Below, piece by piece: positions 21,506-29,765 of a DNA stretch of 60,652 bases. Positions within the stretch are counted from its first letter, which is position 1, and every line of letters starts with the position of its first letter. The position numbers were made by a program, and so were the translations under genes. Source of the stretch: a virus (Duplodnaviria; Caudoviricetes); IMG/VR virus record IMGVR_UViG_3300038679_000011, positions 1-60,652 of that record; one strand, written 5' to 3'. The notes below the pieces were generated by a model that did no database searches, had not been told where the DNA came from, and saw only the letters and a program-made list of their open reading frames with translations.

Positions 21506-22395
21506 CAGAACTCTTCTCCTTCTATTTCGACAGTTAACTTGTCCGCCAGCGGCTTACACAGTTGCAGCGATTTAATTTCCCAGCGCTTGAGGCACTCTAC
21601 AATAAATAGTTCATCATAGACATGTGCTGTTACTTTTAGATCAGCAACATCGATGCATCGAAGTGACATAAGTTGGAAATTCATGTCAAACTTGCCCGAC
21701 TCAAGATGCGTCTTGATTGCATCGAGTTCTTTTGGCTTCCAGTCGCCCGACAAAATCTCTTGCTTCCAGCCAGGAACTGACACTGGCACAGAAGCATCGA
21801 GCCACGAGAGCAGACTAGCAAGGTAAGTGCGGCTTACTCGCGGAGCACCATCTAGGTTATCTGACTTATCGCCGACGATTGCTCGAAACCACGTGAGTAA
21901 GCTAGGCGTTACGCCGTATGTTTTGACTACGCAAGTCTCGTCCCACTCAAATAGCTTGGACTGAAACGACTTGACAACTTTGACATCACGACTGTCATTG
22001 ACGACCCGCAATAAGTCGCTGTCGTTCGTGTAGATTCGGTGACCTGAGCCAGTCGATGCAAGCGCACCCATCACATCGTCTGCTTCGCGGCCGTGGACTT
22101 CGCACTCTGACCAATAGCATCTCAGAAATCGACGTAGCCTTTTCAAGCGCTCGAAGAACTCTGACCCGGCTTTGTGACTTCGGTTAGCTTTGTACCGTGG
22201 GTCCTCTTTACGTCGTTCATTCGTTGGCGAATCCCAGCAGACCACGACGTCTTGCTCGGGATACTTCTTGATGAGCATCTCGATTGCTCGCAGGAAGCCG
22301 TATTCGACTCCGGTGGGTTCGCCGTGCGTGTTCTGTAGAAAATCCATCTTCGCTCGGCATCGGTGCGCGAGCATCATCCCGTCGACTAGCAGCAT
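21505..22395 (-). CDS. 5'-3' exonuclease/flap endonuclease (PolI N-terminal-like)
   Basis: LLVDG, CWDS, RR..DPRYKANR, EADDVMG, TNDSDL and IVGDKSDNLDG motifs. Confidence 0.92.
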   Translation of the reverse strand: MLLVDGMMLAHRCRAKMDFLQNTHGEPTGVEYGFLRAIEMLIKKYPEQDVVVCWDSPTNERRKEDPRYKANRSHKAGSEFFERLKRLRRFLRCYWSECEVHGREADDVMGALASTGSGHRIYTNDSDLLRVVNDSRDVKVVKSFQSKLFEWDETCVVKTYGVTPSLLTWFRAIVGDKSDNLDGAPRVSRTYLASLLSWLDASVPVSVPGWKQEILSGDWKPKELDAIKTHLESGKFDMNFQLMSLRCIDVADLKVTAHVYDELFIVECLKRWEIKSLQLCKPLADKLTVEIEGEEF

Positions 22396-22445
22396 GCATG
22401 TCTCCTACAGGCGCCGTTCGACGGCGTCGTCTACTGAGTTCGATT

Positions 22446-22506
22446 CGACCGGCCTCTATAAAACGACCGGCCTCTATAAAACGACCGGCCTCTATAAAAC
22501 GACCGG
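22446..22506. repeat. 18-bp tandem repeat x3 plus partial copy
   Basis: CGACCGGCCTCTATAAAA. Confidence 0.9.
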
Positions 22507-22532
22507 ATACGTGCCAATGCCGGCCATAATAT

Positions 22533-22644
22533 GGCCTAGAACCGGCCTAGGACGGCCTAGGACGGCATATAGCCTTAAAACCGTATAAACATACCGGTTG
22601 GCCGTTTTATGCCGTCCTAGGCCGTCCTAGGCCGGTTCTAGGCC
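22533..22644. repeat. Perfect 37-bp inverted repeat with 38-bp spacer
   Basis: GGCCTAGAACCGGCCTAGGACGGCCTAGGACGGCATA (22533-22569) and its exact reverse complement (22608-22644). Confidence 0.92.
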
Positions 22645-22816
22645 GTTTACGGTCGTATGTCGACGGTTAGACGGTCGAAAACCGGCATAGGACGGTCTAG
22701 GACGGCCTGGAGTCGCCGGCCGGTGTGATTCGACGACCTGCCGGCATCCGGTCGTCCTAGGCCGTCTGACGACCGTCTGGCGACCCACGGCGACCGGCGG
22801 TACGACTGACAGTGCC

Positions 22817-22866
22817 AAAGCAAAAAGCCCCCGCCCACCGACCGTGTGGCCAGTGAGCGGGGGCTT
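22817..22866 (-). terminator. Rho-independent terminator closing the early operon
   Basis: AAGCCCCCGCTCAC...GTGGGCGGGGGCTT followed by TTTGCTTT on the minus strand. Confidence 0.8.
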
Positions 22867-22905
22867 CAAAAAGATGAACGGTCCTGCGGTGCTACAGCGA
22901 ATGGC

Positions 22906-23088
22906 CTAAGCATTCGCTAATGGCCGTCTTTCAATGAAAGCGCCTTCTGTGTACGACCGTACTGCGAGGAATGCGTTCTTTGCGGTGCTCGCGGTTGACA
23001 CGACGATGTCGAGAACAACGTCGCCGTTTGCGTTCATCACGACGATCTTGTCGTGGTCTTTACGGATTCGGATCGACTTCGTCGTCAT
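22906..23088 (-). CDS. Small hypothetical early protein
   Basis: AAGGAG RBS before MTTKSIRIRK (ATG 23088). Confidence 0.55.
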   Translation of the reverse strand: MTTKSIRIRKDHDKIVVMNANGDVVLDIVVSTASTAKNAFLAVRSYTEGAFIERRPLANA

Positions 23089-23428
23089 CGTCAGTCTCCT
23101 TCTCTTCAAGTTCGTTGAGTTGCTTGTACGTCTCCAACAACTTTTCAATCGACCGTCGGTTCTCTGCCTCAGCGAGTTGTTTTCGTTTGTAGTCGACAAT
23201 CGTTTTTAGTCGCTTGATTTCAGCATCTGATGTCTCGTGCCACTCCGTGAGCTGGCGTTTCTTGGCTTCGGCCTCCGCGATAATCGCATCTTGAGCAGTG
23301 AGCTTGTCTGTGTAGAACTGTTTGTCGCCTCGCTCTCGCCACGTCCTGATGCTGAGCTCACATACCTCTATGGTAGAGTGCAGTACTTTGATGTATTCGC
23401 GTAGCTCAGTCTTGGTCATGTTTTTCAC
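23060..23428 (-). CDS. Coiled-coil hypothetical early protein
   Basis: TATAGGAGATA leader before GTG 23428. Confidence 0.6.
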   Translation of the reverse strand: MKNMTKTELREYIKVLHSTIEVCELSIRTWRERGDKQFYTDKLTAQDAIIAEAEAKKRQLTEWHETSDAEIKRLKTIVDYKRKQLAEAENRRSIEKLLETYKQLNELEEKETDDDDEVDPNP

Positions 23429-23521
23429 AGTACTATCTCCTATAGCAAATGGCCGGGTGCTACATCGCGTATAACACCCGGCCACTGTGACGTCGTCGTA
23501 TTGAACAGTTTACCCGTTGAC

Positions 23522-23959
23522 TCAGGCTTCGTCTTCGGTCTCTTCCTCGGATTTCTTGACCGAGGCCAGAAGGGCATTCACATCGACGCCTTCCTTCTCC
23601 AGCGTCTCGCGAAGCTCGGCCATGCGCTCTTGCAGCTTGATGAGCCGCTTGGCCTTGCCGCGTTCCTTGCCAGCGCCCATCTTCTTTGACTCTTCGGCCT
23701 TCTCGAGCAAAGTCTGGGCTTTGGCCTGGAGCTCTGCGGCCTTGTGCTCGAGGTGGAGGTACTCAGCCTCGAAGGCCGAGCGCTTCAGCGGCTTGAACTT
23801 ACCCCATTCCCAGCCACTGGGGACAGCGACCTTCAACTTACCGTCCTCGAGGCCCGGGAACTCTGGCTTCGACTTCTTCACACGAGCGGGCTTGTCGGCC
23901 TTGTCGGCCTTACCGGGCTTGCTGGTCTTGTCAGCAGTGGGCTTTGCAGGTTTTGCCAT
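23522..23959 (-). CDS. Lys-rich-tail coiled-coil protein, paralog A
   Basis: AAGGAG RBS, MAKPAKPTADK...; clearly similar to 26390..26869. Confidence 0.75.
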   Translation of the reverse strand: MAKPAKPTADKTSKPGKADKADKPARVKKSKPEFPGLEDGKLKVAVPSGWEWGKFKPLKRSAFEAEYLHLEHKAAELQAKAQTLLEKAEESKKMGAGKERGKAKRLIKLQERMAELRETLEKEGVDVNALLASVKKSEEETEDEA

Positions 23960-24158
23960 TACAGTGTCTCCTTTGCAGTGTCTGTGTTTGTGTCTTACGC
24001 TTCTGTTCATGTTCACTTATGTTGTTGCCTCCGTGCTATGTGTATCCGTGACGGTAACGGAGTTCAATGGCCTCCTTTCCTTACTAGATGCTTAAGTTTA
24101 CGACCACTGATTATAGTATCGGGCACGCTTAACGTCGCGTACCGCGTTCGTTGGTCGT

Positions 24159-24256
24159 CGACCTGTCTCATCGGTCACGGTAGGTCATTTCCGTGAGACG
24201 GCGCCGCGGCGGACAAGCAACCAGCTGCTGTTCTGGTTTTACGGCGCCGTTTCGAC
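24159..24256 (-). ncRNA. Type II hammerhead ribozyme (CCGAUGA core variant)
   Basis: GUC-GAAA-stem III ACGGCGCCG/CGGCGCCGU-C-stem I UCACGG/CCGUGA-CCGAUGA-GAC; loop I GACCU pairs with 3' AGGUC; predicted cut 24197|24196. Confidence 0.8.
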
Positions 24257-24649
24257 TCACTGTGAGTCTAATGCATTGAGCTCGTTCTGGAGAGCTTCGA
24301 TGCGCTCCATAAGCTTTTTGTATTTCCTGTCAGCACGTTCCTTCTTCGCGGTCTCACGAGCTTCTCTTGCGGCCTCGCGTTCGGCCTGTGTCGTGAGTCG
24401 GTTCGCGGCACGGTCGTAGTTTGCCGCGAGTCGCTCGAGCTTGTCAGCGAGCAGGTCGAGCTTTGGATCGAATTGCTCACTGAGCTCTTCGTGTTCGACG
24501 CCCATGGCATGGACTTGGTCTGCGATATCTCGGATGATGTTGCCAGTGTTTGTCGTGATCGTCGCGGTCTCGCGTGCGGCCTTCTTGGGGGCGCTCTTGC
24601 TGCTCTTGCTGCTCTTGGTGTTCTTGGTGTTCTTGGTGTTCTTCGCCAT
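24257..24649 (-). CDS. Lys-rich-tail coiled-coil early protein
   Basis: MAKNTKNTKNTKSSKSSKSAPKK; TAGGAGATA leader. Confidence 0.7.
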   Translation of the reverse strand: MAKNTKNTKNTKSSKSSKSAPKKAARETATITTNTGNIIRDIADQVHAMGVEHEELSEQFDPKLDLLADKLERLAANYDRAANRLTTQAEREAAREARETAKKERADRKYKKLMERIEALQNELNALDSQ

Positions 24650-24689
24650 CGTAGTATCTCCTATGCTAAGGCGTTGTAATTGCCGCGGG

Positions 24690-25193
24690 TCACTCGCCAG
24701 CGGCTTCGACTTTTTCTAGCTTCGACTGGAGCTTCATGAGCTCCCTGATCTTCTTTGCGTCCTCAAGTGCCACATGCGAGTGGTTGGCTTCTCCAAATAC
24801 GTGCAACACACACTCGGGTCCGAAGCCCCACTCTACGCTCGCGGGCACTGTTAGCAATCGGCCGCAGCGACCGCAGCGATTTGAGTGCCGCACTCGCATT
24901 CTCGGGTCGAGGTCATTGTCGCTCTTGAGCACTGTGATGAGTCGTTTGAACCACCGAAAGCATGTAGCGCTCTCAGTGACTCGGGATCGGCCAGTAACTT
25001 GAAAGTCATCTTCAAAAAGCGTGCCGATGTACTCATAATTACAGACGTTGTCTGGTCCACTGAGCACCTTGACCCACCACATCGGCTTAGTGTCGTGCTT
25101 GCGGACGTGATACGTGAATCGTTCTCCGGTCAGCGAGTCCTCAAGCGTGAAGAGCGCATTGCCGGCGAGTACGAACTCTTTCCAGTGCCGCAT
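24690..25193 (-). CDS. DUF6011-like Zn-finger protein
   Basis: FVLAGNALFTL...TYHV...LSGPDN...CGRCGRLLTVPASVEWGFGPEC; GGAGG RBS before ATG 25193. Confidence 0.75.
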   Translation of the reverse strand: MRHWKEFVLAGNALFTLEDSLTGERFTYHVRKHDTKPMWWVKVLSGPDNVCNYEYIGTLFEDDFQVTGRSRVTESATCFRWFKRLITVLKSDNDLDPRMRVRHSNRCGRCGRLLTVPASVEWGFGPECVLHVFGEANHSHVALEDAKKIRELMKLQSKLEKVEAAGE

Positions 25194-25194
25194 C

Positions 25195-25542
25195 TCACGC
25201 CTCCGTTTGAAAGTGCTCAGCAAGTGCAGCACGGAAAGTCTTTTCAACGTCGGCTCGAAATTCGATAACGACTGAGTCTGCTTGGTCGTACCACACAGAT
25301 TTAACAGAGCCGCTGCTTCCGCTCGCTAGTTCAAGACAGTTCTCATTGTGGTTCCACCAGATGCACGAGTAGTCATCACTGAGGCGGTACGGCTCGCCCA
25401 TCATGAACGGGTCTAAATCAACAAATGTACTCGCCTGTTTGCGTGCAGTCTGCTGTGGCTGCGCCATATCTGACGTGCCCGTCAGGTACGCGTCGAGACG
25501 CATCAATGACTTTTTGAATGCGGCCTTTGCATCAGCTTTCAT
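25195..25542 (-). CDS. Hypothetical early protein
   Basis: TGTAGGAGACA leader before MKADAK (ATG 25542). Confidence 0.6.
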   Translation of the reverse strand: MKADAKAAFKKSLMRLDAYLTGTSDMAQPQQTARKQASTFVDLDPFMMGEPYRLSDDYSCIWWNHNENCLELASGSSGSVKSVWYDQADSVVIEFRADVEKTFRAALAEHFQTEA

Positions 25543-25566
25543 GTCTTGTCTCCTACAAAAGTCGTC

Positions 25567-25644
25567 GAGTCGTTTTGAGCGACAGTCGCTCGGCTCGGGC
25601 CGGTGCCCGCCCATTGTTGTTACACCGGCCTCCGCGAAATACTG
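25567..25644 (-). ncRNA. Unassigned structured RNA motif, copy B
   Basis: UCGCGGAG-hairpin-CCGAGCCG-AGC hairpin GCU-AAACGACUC, same pattern as 26895-26954. Confidence 0.5.
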
Positions 25645-25869
25645 TCAGTCATGAATGCAATCAAACAAGTCCGTGTCTTGCCAAAAGCGCTTGATCATGA
25701 TCTCTAATGCGAAACGCGTGCCTTGGTACTGAATGACGGGCCAACCTGCGGGTCCCATCGGATCGACAATCTTATACGTGATCTGCATGTCACGCATATA
25801 TCGTCGCAACTCAGGGTTGTGTTCCAGTTCAACGGTGTTCAGTTCGACTTGTTTAAATTCGACTGCCAT
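25645..25869 (-). CDS. Hypothetical early protein
   Basis: TGTAGGAGACA leader before MAVEFK; GPAGWP.I.Y.G motif. Confidence 0.65.
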   Translation of the reverse strand: MAVEFKQVELNTVELEHNPELRRYMRDMQITYKIVDPMGPAGWPVIQYQGTRFALEIMIKRFWQDTDLFDCIHD

Positions 25870-25941
25870 TGTTTTGTCTCCTACAAGGTGTTGAGTCGTT
25901 TGCCCACCCATTGTTGCTACACCGGCCTCCACGAAATACTG

Positions 25942-26211
25942 TTACTTAGGTTCGATCTCGCCCTCGAGCAAGCGTTCGACCTCGCGTTGAATACGTTCCC
26001 ATGGTGCATGCGACGATATTGACTGACTCGGCGTCGGGCCCTTTCGGAGGGCGCCGGCCTTGCCTGTGAAGTAAAGGTCGTCAAGCATAGCGGGCATCTT
26101 GTACGCTCGGTACTTCTTCGAGCGGCAAGACACCTCAGTTCCTCTGTGGCAACCCGTCAACCAGTGATGCAGCAGCTCTTGCTTCGTCATGCGTTCGACT
26201 TGCGTCTTCAT
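25942..26211 (-). CDS. Hypothetical early protein
   Basis: TGTAGGAGACA leader; YFTGKAGALRKG motif. Confidence 0.65.
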   Translation of the reverse strand: MKTQVERMTKQELLHHWLTGCHRGTEVSCRSKKYRAYKMPAMLDDLYFTGKAGALRKGPTPSQSISSHAPWERIQREVERLLEGEIEPK

Positions 26212-26242
26212 GGTCCTGTCTCCTACAAGGTGTTGAATCGTT

Positions 26243-26311
26243 TGACCTGTCTCATCAGCGGTGGGCGGTCACCCACACCGGACGACGTGTGACATCACAC
26301 GTCGTTTCGAC
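26243..26311 (-). ncRNA. Type II hammerhead ribozyme
   Basis: GUC-GAAA-stem III ACGACGUGUG/CACACGUCGU-C-stem I CGGU/ACCG + GGG/CCC-CUGAUGA-GAC; loop UGACC pairs with 3' GGUCA; predicted cut 26281|26280. Confidence 0.92.
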
Positions 26312-26389
26312 TTTAGGAGGCCCGCAGGCTGTGAACCTGCGGGCCCGGTTGGAGGCCCTGCGGCGGAGTGCCGTAGAGAGGCGTGCTGT

Positions 26390-26869
26390 TTACTCCTTGT
26401 CGTTCTTCGCGGTAGCGGCGAGCAGTGCGTCGACATCGATTCCGGCGCTCTTGAGCTCAGCTGTGAGCTCTACGATCTTGTTCCGCATTTTCTCGACCTT
26501 GCGGGCGGCGGAGAGTGTCTTCTTGTCACCGTACTTCGAAGCATCTGCAGCTCGGAGACGCATCTGTGTGGCCTTGTACTCGAAGGCTAGTGCCTTGTGC
26601 TCAAAGTAGAGCTTGTCGTGCGTGAAGTTCTTTTTGGCAAGCGGCTTGTGCGAGCCGAAGCCGAAGCCGTCGGGCATCGCGATGTCGAACGGGCCTGCCT
26701 CGACGTCGAACTTCGTCACCTTCGTCACCTTGGGCGTCTTGGCAGCTTTGACGTCGGTTTCCGGTGCAGTCGCCTTGGTCGCCGGGGTCGCCTTGGTCGC
26801 CGGGGTCGCCTTGGTCGCCGGGGTCGCCTTGGTGGCCTTGCCGCTCGTGGGGTTGACTTTCGTCGTCAT
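26390..26869 (-). CDS. Lys/Ala/Thr-rich-tail coiled-coil protein, paralog B
   Basis: ATKATP x3 (18-bp repeat); KPL...EHKA...GIDVDALLA shared with 23522..23959. Confidence 0.75.
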   Translation of the reverse strand: MTTKVNPTSGKATKATPATKATPATKATPATKATAPETDVKAAKTPKVTKVTKFDVEAGPFDIAMPDGFGFGSHKPLAKKNFTHDKLYFEHKALAFEYKATQMRLRAADASKYGDKKTLSAARKVEKMRNKIVELTAELKSAGIDVDALLAATAKNDKE

Positions 26870-26894
26870 GTTACTATCTCCTATAATATGAGTA

Positions 26895-26954
26895 GAGTCG
26901 TTTAGCAGCACCAACGGCTGCTCGGCTCAGCCCGCCGTAAAGCGGGCTCCGCGA
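26895..26954 (-). ncRNA. Unassigned structured RNA motif, copy A
   Basis: UCGCGGAG-CCCGC/GCGGG-CUGAGCCG-AGCAGC/GCUGCU-AAACGACUC. Confidence 0.5.
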
Positions 26955-27125
26955 GAAGTCGTTAATTATCGCACATTAGTATCAACAATACGTTCGGCGC
27001 TATTGTCATGGCACCACGGCATGCAGTGCAGTTCCATGAAACAACGAGCAGCGTCGCTTGTTACGAAGTACTCGGTACGTTTATTGGTCTTGACGAAAAC
27101 GGTTCGGTCTCTTGGGTAACTTTGA

Positions 27126-27320
27126 CTATTGGTACAGTTCGGTGTACGCGACGAACATGCGCTCGACTTGCTTCTGAAACAGACGTGCGTGGCCTTTGCA
27201 GGCAAATCCGAATTGCACAGAGCACTGTGTGGTCGATCCGAAGAACTCGCCTTTGCACTTGCGAGCAAGGGCGTCGATGGACATCAGCGGTGCGGCAGAT
27301 TGAACTTTTACTCGAGCCAT
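27126..27320 (-). CDS. Hypothetical early protein (possibly frameshifted, may extend to 26966)
   Basis: TGTAGGAGACA leader before ATG 27320; another frame stays open to 26966. Confidence 0.55.
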   Translation of the reverse strand: MARVKVQSAAPLMSIDALARKCKGEFFGSTTQCSVQFGFACKGHARLFQKQVERMFVAYTELYQ

Positions 27321-27351
27321 TGTCTTGTCTCCTACAAGGTGTGGTCGTTTC

Positions 27352-27414
27352 GGCCTGTCTCATCAGTGCCGGGCGGCCAGCCCGCGGCAGACGGCGCCAT
27401 AGCGCCGTTTCGAC
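27352..27414 (-). ncRNA. Type II hammerhead ribozyme
   Basis: GUC-GAAA-stem III ACGGCGC/GCGCCGU-C-stem I UGCC/GGCA + GGGC/GCCC-CUGAUGA-GAC; loop UGGCC pairs with 3' GGCCG; predicted cut 27390|27389. Confidence 0.92.
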
Positions 27415-27649
27415 TAATTGTGGCAGTAATGAGCATGCTCTTGTTTTCGCTGAAGCGCTTTGACGTGGCGAATGTGTTTGCAGTCATGTCGCGGCGTATG
27501 CATCGTCCAACCGGGGCAAGAGCATTGCCATTGATACTTGAGGAACCCTGTGATTACTTCACTGACCACGTACTTTTTCCGCTGTCGCTCGTCACCGAGT
27601 AGCGATTCAGTTGAGCAACGTTTTTGATTCGTGTTTGTCTTGTCGTCAT
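27414..27649 (-). pseudogene. SWIM Zn-finger gene split by a frame break at GGAAAAAG
   Basis: ATG 27649 frame stops at 27554; the -1 frame carries KYVV...WQCSCPGW...CKH. Confidence 0.6.
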
Positions 27650-27679
27650 TGTCTTGTCTCCTACAAGGTGTGGTCGTCG

Positions 27680-27768
27680 TGGCTTGTCTCGTCAGGCGGG
27701 CAGTAGCCAGCTGCGTCGCGAACCGGCAGAGCGTATTCGAGCGAATCTTGCTCATGCCGGGTTTCGAC
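27680..27768 (-). ncRNA. Type II hammerhead ribozyme (CUGACGA core, UUC site, one stem III mismatch)
   Basis: GUC-GAAA-C-CCGGCA/UGCCGG-UUC-stem I GCG/CGC + GCAG/CUGC-CUGACGA-GAC; loop UGGCU pairs with 3' AGCCA; predicted cut 27720|27719. Confidence 0.78.
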
Positions 27769-27770
27769 TC

Positions 27771-28150
27771 TTTGACTTGGGTGGACTGTCCAGTGCGCTG
27801 TAAGGTACGGTGCGTCATCGCCGTCGTAGCTGCCTCATGTTGCAGCATGGTAGCAGTTCAGCTCGTCGTATGCGATCGCATCTTGTCGAGCAAACGCGTT
27901 CCCGTGTTACGGTCGCCTCAGATCGTCCTGGCGTCGTTTCACCCGGCCATAGCCAGCGGTGTATCAGCCTCTTGCTGCTACCAGCCCATGATCCCCACCT
28001 TACTCCCTTCGGTCCGCGGCATCGTCGTATTCGAGCGAATCTTGACGACCCAGGGTCCGAAGCTTTCGGCAGGGGACAAGCGGTAAGTCAGGTCCCGTGC
28101 GGGATTCAAGCCGTTACGTCGGTCCGCAGCAGGCTGCGTTCGGCTTCGTG
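27771..28150 (-). ncRNA. Candidate large structured non-coding RNA (unassigned)
   Basis: No RBS-led ORF; nested helices UGACUU/AAGUCA, GUCCCC/GGGGAU, CUUCGG/CCGAAG, UGGUAGCAG/CUGCUACCA and pseudoknot GUAAGGU/ACCUUAC. Confidence 0.6.
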
Positions 28151-28183
28151 TTATTCAATTTTCAATTCAATCCATTGAGTATC

Positions 28184-28212
28184 ATTTTAACCAATTGGTT
28201 CATCATGGTACA
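28184..28212 (-). promoter_or_regulatory. Putative sigma70-like early promoter
   Basis: TGTACC-17 bp-TAAAAT with AT-rich upstream sequence; same architecture as 43280-43308. Confidence 0.55.
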
Positions 28213-28262
28213 CAGGAAAATTGGAAAAACGTCACAAATTACTAAAATTTTCTCTTGTGACG

Positions 28263-28345
28263 TAAGTCGTGTTATACCCTGGACTTATACCTCAAAGCCT
28301 GGGTCAATCGGGTCGTCTCTAAGTCGTGCTATACCCTGGACTTAT
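28263..28345. promoter_or_regulatory. Two 26-bp direct repeats, each a TAAGTC-N13-GACTTA dyad
   Basis: TAAGTCGTGYTATACCCTGGACTTAT at 28263 and 28320. Confidence 0.7.
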
Positions 28346-28520
28346 GAATGCCACCTGAGGCCACCAGAGGCTCTAGGACGGCCTATCGGCCTATTCAATC
28401 GAATCGTATTGACCAGGGGTCGACATCGACCTGGGCAGCCTCAGGTGGCATCCTATACATCGTCACGACGACACGCCGGTCGCATGGTACGCCGAACTAC
28501 TCTGGCTTGTACCCGCCGAA

Positions 28521-29765
28521 CTACTCTGGCTTGTACCCGCCGAACGCGTCGAACCACGTGTCGCTTCGTGGGTCATCGTAATGAACGAGCCGGTCAAGCA
28601 TCGCATCGACGAGTTCGAAGTTGGGGCGAGTGACACTTTTCCAGTACGCGAGCTCGTCGCTATACCGTATCGGGTCCTCAAGTTCGTTGACTCGCCGCTT
28701 GAAGTCGCCCGGTCGAGCTACTCTCCAGTCAGATTCGAGCGATAAGTACTGCTCAAGTGCATCGTAGGTCAGCGTGTGCTCGCCGTCGCCGAAGAGTAGC
28801 GGTACGCAGTTCTGCGACGTAAGGAAGTGAATCTTATTTGTCACGAACCGCGGGCCTGGCGCTACGCATGGGCAACACACACTTGCAGCCATCGCCGCAG
28901 CGCACTCGCTGAGCAACACGCACCCAGCGAACATCGGCCGAAGTGCATCGTATCGATGGTAATGTTCCCAGTCGCGGCCATAGATTTTGACGTCGCGGTT
29001 CATGAGTTCGACTGCGTCTTCCGTCGGCGATAGGATCGTGTCGAATGCACTCACGCGGTTATCACGTCCGTGGAACTTCGAATGCATGTAGCAGTGCGCT
29101 ATGATGCACGCAGGAACGTCTTTTATTACGTCTTTTACTTTTGGAGTCCACGTCCAACTCTCAGTCTGGCTCAGCACAGAGCGACGCAAGAACTGCTTGC
29201 CGCCTACAGTAACTCGCTTGTCGCATGCAGTCTGGTCGAGTAACGCAAGCGGACGCGTCCACTCAAATCCCCATGACATCTCTTGGTTGCGAGGGTAGCT
29301 GCGGATGTCGTTGTTGATGAGGAACCGCGGGATCTTGTAGCGCTCGAGCACGTGTAGCATCGGAGCGACGTAGCGCACTGACATCGCTGCGGGTCGTGAT
29401 CCTTCGGGGTTGTTGATGAAGCCAGTGCTCGTGGGCATGCCGGTAAACTCCAGCATGCACAGCGGGTTCCAAAACGGCAGCGCCTCGAGAGCGGCCTCGT
29501 CCCGGGCGAACCCACGCTCTTGCATCCGCTGCGTCGTGAACTCATCGAAGCCCTTGACGTACGGCTCGATGACGTGAACGCCGTCAAGACTTGGTCCGTC
29601 CCATCGTCCGAAGTAGACGACGTCCCATCGGTCAGTTTCGACGAGATGCCTGAGCAAGCCTTCGATTTCGCCCATTGTATGCATCGCAGACGACGGATGG
29701 TCCATCTCGCGAATGCGCATCGTCACGCCCGCTTTTGTTACTATGATGGTGTGTCGAGCTGTCAT
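28521..29765 (-). CDS. GT-B-fold glycosyltransferase-like protein, probable DNA glycosyltransferase
   Basis: 414 aa; LINNDIR, KIYGRDW and FVTNKIHF...CVPLL resemble the GT-B sugar-nucleotide lobe; last gene of the pol/TS operon. Confidence 0.5.
   Translation of the reverse strand: MTARHTIIVTKAGVTMRIREMDHPSSAMHTMGEIEGLLRHLVETDRWDVVYFGRWDGPSLDGVHVIEPYVKGFDEFTTQRMQERGFARDEAALEALPFWNPLCMLEFTGMPTSTGFINNPEGSRPAAMSVRYVAPMLHVLERYKIPRFLINNDIRSYPRNQEMSWGFEWTRPLALLDQTACDKRVTVGGKQFLRRSVLSQTESWTWTPKVKDVIKDVPACIIAHCYMHSKFHGRDNRVSAFDTILSPTEDAVELMNRDVKIYGRDWEHYHRYDALRPMFAGCVLLSECAAAMAASVCCPCVAPGPRFVTNKIHFLTSQNCVPLLFGDGEHTLTYDALEQYLSLESDWRVARPGDFKRRVNELEDPIRYSDELAYWKSVTRPNFELVDAMLDRLVHYDDPRSDTWFDAFGGYKPE

Follow-up and report, generated by a model that had tools for sequence, protein, structure and literature searches.

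Four candidate type II hammerhead ribozymes between small genes of a groundwater siphovirus-like phage

The IMG/VR virus record IMGVR_UViG_3300038679_000011 is complete and has direct terminal repeats; its entire 60,652 bases are referred to here as the window. The public runs that contain it are labelled as groundwater metagenomes. Between small phage genes of unknown function it carries four elements, which we have designated HH1 to HH4 and which, judging from their sequence, are likely to be cis-acting type II hammerhead self-cleaving ribozymes. All four were on the coding strand within 3.6 kb, with spacings of 354, 1103 and 2055 nt between neighbouring copies. From their motifs, structures and positions we infer cleavage and its consequences, the most likely function being self-cleavage that cuts a polycistronic RNA. 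Comparison of 20 large minus-strand open reading frames (ORFs) with PHROGs gave matches for 16, the annotated phage genes were all on one strand, and the genome, of 60.6 kb, belongs to a tailed, siphovirus-like phage. The phage is a typical new example of an arrangement already described and not a new kind of system.

Detection and structure of the elements

Type II hammerheads were collected from IMG/VR with a strict pattern that matched at least 120 stretches, and 46 sequences (44 from IMG/VR together with HH2 and HH3) were used with the known structure to build a covariance model, which we have designated R1; HH1 and HH4 were excluded from it. A search of both strands of the whole window with R1, with filters off, revealed HH2, HH3, HH4 and HH1, in descending order of score (Table 1). 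The weakest of these, HH1, had a rough E-value of 3e-4 and the next best match in the window scored 11.1 bits (E 1.2). As R1 recovered the four elements and every other match scored far lower, the phage has exactly four hammerhead-like elements. Inspection and R1 both confirmed the four minus-strand positions given by a first-pass annotation made from the sequence alone, and the cut sites that it had predicted (27720/27719, 27390/27389, 26281/26280 and 24197/24196) were reproduced from the motif. An Rfam check, which the same annotation had proposed, bore out two of the copies only: HH2 (27349-27415) and HH3 (26241-26312) were above the 37-bit gathering score of RF02276 (Hammerhead_II), whereas HH4, at 26.1 bits, fell below it and HH1 was not matched.

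Short hammerhead-like cores arise by chance in large databases, as described in the covered part of PMC3088659, and the motifs could in principle be look-alikes of this kind. The window contained AGTCGAAAC six times against a shuffle expectation of 0.67, with four of the occurrences being the minus-strand ones at the elements, and CYGAYGAGACA four times, all at the elements, against 0.19 expected. Additionally, four full motifs were on one strand within 3.6 kb, R1 found no further hammerhead in the 121 kb of searched strand, and two copies exceeded the curated cut-off. The probability of chance resemblance is therefore negligible, the Rfam scores, motif counts and whole-window R1 scan having effectively refuted it.

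In all four copies the segment between GAAA and the CUGANGA strand folded as two loop-capped hairpins (stems III and I), and stem II was open and formed by GUC/GAC. The type II topology claimed for the elements was borne out by the folds and pseudoknots. The GAAA core strand was present in 4/4 copies and the second core strand was CUGACGA in HH1, CUGAUGA in HH2 and HH3, and CCGAUGA in HH4, in which U4 is replaced (U4C). A descriptor scan of the window and 120 listed IMG/VR loci (1.2 Mb) gave 165 two-hairpin type II elements, of which 152 had CUGAUGA, eight CUGACGA, four CUGAAGA and one, HH4 itself, CCGAUGA; the C at N7 of HH1 (8/165 listed elements) is accordingly a normal variant. The cleavage-site triplet was GUC in HH2, HH3 and HH4 and UUC in HH1, with the essential A15.1-U16.1 pair present in all four. 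The adjacent pair, 15.2/16.2, was C-G in HH2, HH3 and HH4 and a C.U mismatch in HH1. A UUC junction of the HH1 type was found in 2/165 listed elements, the other being in locus L054. In HH1, stem I was also interrupted by an internal loop and stem III was long; the stem III of HH4 was branched and 51 nt in length. The first-pass annotation was right on the motifs and silent on the U4C of HH4 and on the C15.2.U16.2 pair and irregular stem I of HH1.

Pairing between loop I and the 3' tail was retained in all four copies, as UGGCU/AGCCA, UGGCC/GGCCG, UGACC/GGUCA and UGACCU/AGGUCG for HH1 to HH4 respectively, giving pseudoknots of 5, 5, 5 and 6 bp in which 21/21 pairs were standard or G.U. A pseudoknot was taken as at least 4 bp, a trait of most RF02276 members and not of all. 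The covariation between copies that had been claimed for this helix was upheld at two positions, where both bases differed from those of the other copies (G-C replaced by A-U in one case, C-G by U-A in the other); at a third position U-A was replaced by U.G. The four-copy pair table was compiled by hand from the folds; MAFFT misaligned stem I of HH1 and a model-based alignment put the interior of that stem into an insert. In the family alignment of 46 sequences, 91.6% of cells were paired, compared to 66.4% after shuffling and at most 38.4% with slid partners, and the covariation score was 0.629 against 0.144, the pseudoknot helix included. Several columns of this alignment were invariant because of the search pattern used to collect the seeds.

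A hairpin motif, CAAGAU followed by a short palindromic stem and AUACG, was found in three copies in the window (0.25 expected), each flanked by complementary bases. One copy formed the tip of HH1 stem III and two were in the geneless leader upstream of it. In a 194 kb IMG/VR phage (L134, at approximately 200-450), an exact copy and two look-alikes were located between tRNA-like sequences. A degenerate scan of IMG/VR for this motif gave 33 matches, nearly all without flanking pairing, which were attributed to chance.

Predicted processing of the polycistronic RNA

As the polycistronic RNA is made, each motif would fold into stems III and I, a short open stem II and a 5-6 bp pseudoknot, and would cut itself after C17. 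At its 3' end the upstream piece would have the stem III hairpin and a 2',3'-cyclic phosphate. The 5' end of the downstream piece would be a 5'-OH and the stem I hairpin, with a ribosome binding site (RBS) and a start codon 36-37 nt on. The transcript would in this way be split into mRNAs of one or a few genes, which can differ in stability and translation. In bacteriophage T7 the early mRNA is cut by the host RNase III at double-stranded intercistronic sites, which leaves 5'-phosphate and 3'-OH ends. The likeness to RNase III processing in T7 and SPO1 drawn by the first-pass annotation holds as a functional analogy and nothing beyond it: both would involve intercistronic cuts and hairpin-ended single-gene mRNAs, but the phage RNA would cut itself and bear 5'-OH and 2',3'-cyclic phosphate ends.

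Cutting of the polycistron, as put forward in that annotation, is the most likely function of motifs that lie between the genes of one co-directional module, but it is not a new inference; it is the standard hypothesis, published for clustered prophage hammerheads by Perreault et al. 2011 (PMC3088659). The covered part of that paper describes clustered hammerheads that flank small prophage genes and proposes processing into single-gene mRNAs; hammerheads of such prophage clusters were active in vitro, and one set also cleaved in E. coli. Like RF02276 and the clusters of Agrobacterium tumefaciens, Azorhizobium caulinodans and Clostridium scindens, the present elements are type II, with a 2-3 bp open stem II and a pseudoknot, and the co-oriented copies flank single or few small phage genes, an arrangement for which processing of a long transcript was proposed (PMC3088659). 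Unlike those prophages, the present phage, with four copies, is a free and uncultivated one from groundwater with a siphovirus-like genome, and unlike the RF02276 consensus, one copy has U4C and another has C.U at 15.2/16.2 and the repeated hairpin motif in stem III. Three type II hammerheads of the same family, near hypothetical or phage-like genes and two of them close together, are described in Desulfovibrio vulgaris and were shown to cleave in cells by cyPhyRNA-seq and in vitro (PMC8782182, as far as covered), whereas cleavage by the present motifs is predicted. In the covered text of two reviews, the ORFs flanked by hammerheads are described as small, non-conserved and of unknown function (2017; PMC6155905) and the role of bacterial hammerheads as largely elusive (2019; PMC6765202).

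Several observations weigh against four working ribozymes. HH1 had no RF02276 match even at E<=10 in a 961-base search, and reached only 26.1 bits with R1, whose E-values are rough. The U4C of HH4 was the sole case among the 165 listed elements, and this substitution 'considerably decreases activity in vitro' (PMC3088659, covered part). The closest relative found among the eight loci of a DNA polymerase search, a complete 61.5 kb record with 49% DNA polymerase identity, had no type II hammerhead or RF02276 match. Additionally, family statistics are biased towards canonical copies because the seed loci were chosen with the strict pattern. With U4C in HH4 and with HH1 well off consensus, the earlier claim that all four cut is unsupported. 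HH2 and HH3 are canonical and very probably fast, and HH1, with C.U by the cleavage-site pair and a long stem III, and HH4, with U4C, are probably slower or partly inactive.

It is conceivable, although we would put its probability well short of even, that only HH2 and HH3 work and that HH1 and HH4 have decayed, which would leave the RNA in three pieces and not five. The rarity of U4C, for which a strong loss in vitro is reported (PMC3088659, covered part), would fit such decay, as would the failure of Rfam to detect HH1, the restriction of its 15.2/16.2 C.U to 2/165 listed elements and the fact that HH4 alone among the four is not followed by the shared leader described below. However, HH1 and HH4 keep all other core bases, the A15.1-U16.1 pair, stem II and a pseudoknot of 5-6 bp, and that of HH1 contains a compensatory U-A pair, suggesting continued selection. 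A natural U4C hammerhead of a viroid, with the same substitution as HH4 in another hammerhead type and biological setting, retains enough activity in vivo for infectivity (PMC3088659, covered part). The letters of HH4 were identical in contigs of three other runs, two of DNA (X2 and X5) and one RNA library (X4), so its U4C is not an assembly slip.

The RNA library, a single groundwater metatranscriptome run (X4), was available as Logan contigs, which give no strand, ends or levels and in which DNA carry-over is possible. Eight contig pieces aligned to 22700-28500, where coverage was patchy (15/30 bins). The deepest piece (depth 13) covered 27768-28150, the geneless leader from an AT-rich segment to the first base of HH1, which, in one run of contigs, hints at abundant leader RNA over this section. 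Another piece, 23799-24177, started 19 nt past the predicted HH4 cut. Pieces bridging a predicted cut were found at none of the four sites, which fits cleavage, but, as an uncovered part is no evidence, these gaps and piece ends were not counted in its favour.

The ends of hammerhead products (5'-OH and 2',3'-cyclic phosphate) match the substrates of RtcB, and three of the pieces would carry both end types, which was the ground on which circularisation by an RtcB-type ligase had been suggested. This suggestion is unsupported and we regard it as very improbable: the phage had no RtcB match, circular or spliced products were sought by Perreault et al. and, in the covered part of that paper, none were detected (PMC3088659), and no joints were seen in the contigs over the region, though contigs are a poor test.

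As a discovery the array is ordinary, the arrangement having been published in 2011 and being common in viral metagenomes, and it is of modest interest, to which the natural U4C copy and the stop-codon regularity described below add a little. The complete phage genome provides a clean natural test case, with two canonical and two off-consensus copies in one probable transcription unit, with a promoter-like region at one end and a strong terminator-like hairpin at the other. It bears on the setting of small-gene expression by self-cleavage, on the core variation that is tolerated in vivo and on stop overlap as a coupling of cleavage to translation.

Placement between stop and start codons

A census with R1 (E<=0.01) of 80 listed hammerhead-bearing IMG/VR loci (772 kb), each chosen for at least one copy, gave 165 matches; this total and that of the descriptor scan refer to different sets, the former to R1 matches in 80 loci and the latter to descriptor matches in the window and 120 loci. 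Between four and ten co-oriented copies, always on one strand, were found in 10/80 listed loci: ten in L040, eight in L018, seven in L071, six in L019, five each in L055, L041 and L082, and four each in L010, L017 and L070. The median spacing between neighbouring copies in the listed loci was 466 nt.

The 165 descriptor matches, of which 146 were distinct, came from 113 listed IMG/VR loci and the window. For each, the closest open frame with 60 codons or more was examined for a stop codon starting 1-4 nt before the G of stem II. Such a stop was found in 113/165 listed elements and 96/146 distinct ones; a count of 114 of 165 was obtained by a different rule, which took any qualifying stop and not the nearest gene end. 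Among the distinct elements, 65 had a UAG whose G was the G of stem II and 25 had a stop ending just before that G (19 UAA, 5 UGA and 1 UAG). Of the 30 distinct copies that did not match the seed pattern and had been detected solely as neighbours, 19 had the same placement. Control positions gave approximately 1.5-3%, with 91/2948 other AGTC sites on the same strands and 9/614 positions shifted by 250-400 nt, and UAG accounted for 336/1469 stops of long frames on those strands. Downstream, 134/146 distinct elements were followed by an RBS-preceded start codon at a median of approximately 27 nt. With a stop at its 5' end and an RBS and start downstream, the type II hammerhead therefore forms a compact stop-to-start unit.

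The copies of the window fitted this placement to differing extents: HH2 did so at both ends, HH4 at its 5' end, and HH1 and HH3 at their 3' ends. In agreement with the first-pass annotation, two elements were at a stop codon: the UAG of the frame upstream of HH2 (from -2) overlaps A-1/G of the ribozyme motif, and the UGA of the gene upstream of HH4 (from -3) abuts it. Three elements, as it had also stated, ran into one RBS leader. This shared TGTAGGAGACA leader followed HH1, HH2 and HH3, where it ended in GUAGGAGACA ahead of the start codon and the distance from the end of the stem II GAC to the AUG was 36-37 nt. Six copies were found in the window, 6/6 on the minus strand, three of them without a hammerhead. 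A 17-nt leader pattern gave 29 single matches in metagenome contigs, none with a hammerhead, and these were considered chance matches.

No report of the stop-codon overlap was found in the literature searched, the coverage of which was incomplete and excluded supplements, and the term 'stop codon' was absent from the searched text of PMC3088659, PMC8782182, PMC6765202 and PMC6155905; the regularity may be new. It could reflect either genome compaction or ribosome-gated folding. Under gating, stem II and the 5' strand of stem III would be covered by a terminating ribosome, and the ribozyme would fold and cut only once translation had terminated. The downstream gene would start at a nearly constant distance (median approximately 27 nt), on a new mRNA capped by a hairpin and bearing a 5'-OH. 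That phage type II hammerheads are translation-coupled intercistronic units of this kind is a doubtful proposition, and the ribosome-gated folding is conjectural.

Gene context, relatives and repeats

The module flanked by the hammerheads comprised eight small ORFs, of which only one, DUF6011/phrog_20259, had a family match above the Pfam cut-off (Table 1). Cassette exchange offers another account of the array, in which the hammerhead and leader units mark the borders of exchangeable cassettes (morons), recombination or acquisition being their main role and RNA cutting secondary. The flanked genes are otherwise orphans, the nearest relative lacks the ribozymes, a near-identical leader occurs six times, and hammerhead-flanked ORFs are small and non-conserved in reviews (PMC6155905, covered part), all of which such exchange would accommodate. 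Against this, the core and pseudoknot are conserved with compensatory changes, which argues for selection on RNA structure and not on DNA repeats, and the copies are poor recombination substrates because their stem sequences differ. We consider a primarily recombinational role unlikely and retain self-cleavage as the most likely function.

Four further records from the DNA polymerase search also had no RF02276 match, and the closest relative had no match to any Rfam family in two stretches scanned (34 kb). As the array is absent from the closest relative, it is not conserved and cannot be essential to the phage group; it is an accessory feature. A 414-amino-acid (aa) neighbour gene had no relative in IMG/VR, and blastn against GenBank phages gave a low-complexity match only.

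Table 1. Positions of the hammerhead elements and surrounding features in the window
Feature	Position	Strand	Evidence or remark
HH1, type II hammerhead motif, off consensus	27680-27769	minus	R1 26.1 bits; fold; no Rfam match
HH1 stem II	27768-27766 / 27688-27686	minus	
HH1 core GAAA	27765-27762	minus	
HH1 core CUGACGA	27695-27689	minus	
HH1 pseudoknot	27709-27705 with 27684-27680	minus	
HH2, canonical type II hammerhead	27351-27415	minus	Rfam 57.2 bits; R1 75.0 bits
HH2 pseudoknot	27379-27375 with 27355-27351	minus	
HH3, canonical type II hammerhead	26243-26312	minus	Rfam 46.0 bits; R1 66.5 bits
HH3 pseudoknot	26271-26267 with 26247-26243	minus	
HH4, type II hammerhead, core variant	24159-24257	minus	Rfam 26.1 bits; R1 58.5 bits
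HH4 core CCGAUGA (U4C)	24174-24168	minus	
HH4 pseudoknot	24187-24182 with 24164-24159	minus	
Leader, approximately 380 nt, no assigned gene	27770-28150	minus	Two CAAGAU...AUACG copies
CAAGAU...AUACG hairpin motif	27732-27750, 27867-27885, 28026-28044	minus	
Shared leader, RBS and AUG after HH1	27647-27685	minus	
Shared leader after HH2	27318-27356	minus	
Shared leader after HH3	26209-26248	minus	
Shared leader without hammerhead	25875-25885, 25547-25557, 22399-22409	minus	
Module of eight small ORFs	24257-27649	minus	
ORF (two-frame gene)	27649-27414	minus	
ORFs	27320-27126, 26869-26390, 26211-25942, 25869-25645, 25542-25195	minus	
ORF	25193-24690	minus	DUF6011
ORF	24649-24257	minus	
Intrinsic-terminator-like hairpin and U tract	22824-22867	minus	
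Tape measure and tail proteins	59169-51483	minus	PHROGs
Helicase, primase, methyltransferase, thymidylate synthase, DNA polymerase	43226-30670	minus	PHROGs
Exonuclease and DNA ligase	22395-19990	minus	PHROGs
Terminase, portal, head proteins	12646-3680	minus	PHROGs

The last replication-side gene ended at 28521, and no assigned gene was present between this point and HH1. The only minus-strand ORFs listed for the leader at 27770-28150 were one of 43 aa and the first part of a 144-aa frame that was considered non-coding; the leader had no Rfam match (E<=10) and its folding energy was not unusual (z-score -1.28). Two 26-nt direct repeats upstream of it (28263-28288 and 28320-28345) were 96% alike and absent from the rest of the genome. 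An exact tandem duplication of 24 nt spanned the end of the 414-aa gene (28490-28537), and a perfect 14-nt inverted repeat (28348-28361 with 28438-28451) and an AT-rich segment were also upstream of the leader. These repeats are possible promoter or operator elements of the unit that carries the hammerheads. A scan of 22000-29000 gave no minus-strand sigma-70-like promoter, and the 458-nt first piece proposed in the first-pass annotation is unsupported for this reason. Its description of the operon as early is likewise unsupported, as nothing in the unit shows early timing.

The gene after HH1 (27649-27414) spanned two frames: an RBS-preceded start opened a 31-codon frame, and the -1 frame, which encoded a CxC...CxH motif, ran on to the stop codon inside HH2. 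An A5 run was present at 27578-27574, and the split was found with the same letters in a contig of another run (X3). Three explanations come into question: programmed -1 frameshifting at the A run, a pair of small ORFs, or a genuine break in the gene. The CxC...CxH frame had no Pfam match at E<=0.01; we presume its motif to resemble a SWIM-type zinc finger. A GC-rich hairpin was located just 5' of HH3, at approximately 26346-26319.

Within the module, a 41-nt element was found in two minus-strand copies (25941-25901 and 25644-25604), each directly 3' of a small-gene stop and followed by the shared leader, the position that a hammerhead would take. These repeats were rejected as recognisable ribozymes, having no Rfam family at E<=10 and z-scores of 0.18 and -1.01 relative to shuffles, and no copy of them was found in IMG/VR. 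The GUAUUU in the 5' part of the element presumably resembles an RNase E-type site.

The region 3' of HH4 contained three further small genes. One of these, 23959-23522, was paralogous to 26869-26390 inside the array (both minus), with 34% identity over 104 residues (E 2e-21). Both paralogues had lysine/alanine/proline-rich N-terminal repeats and neither matched Pfam or PHROGs. The terminator-like hairpin that follows (22824-22867) probably ends the transcription unit carrying the array. Between this terminator and the exonuclease gene, a repeat field (22440-22800) contained seven CGTCCTAGGCCGTC-like 14-mers in both orientations, inverted repeats of 54-68 nt and three identical units of 25 nt, which overlapped with a period of 18 nt. 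Matches of this field to miRNA families in an Rfam E-value search were spurious. The iteron-like field looks like a replication origin or other protein-binding array.

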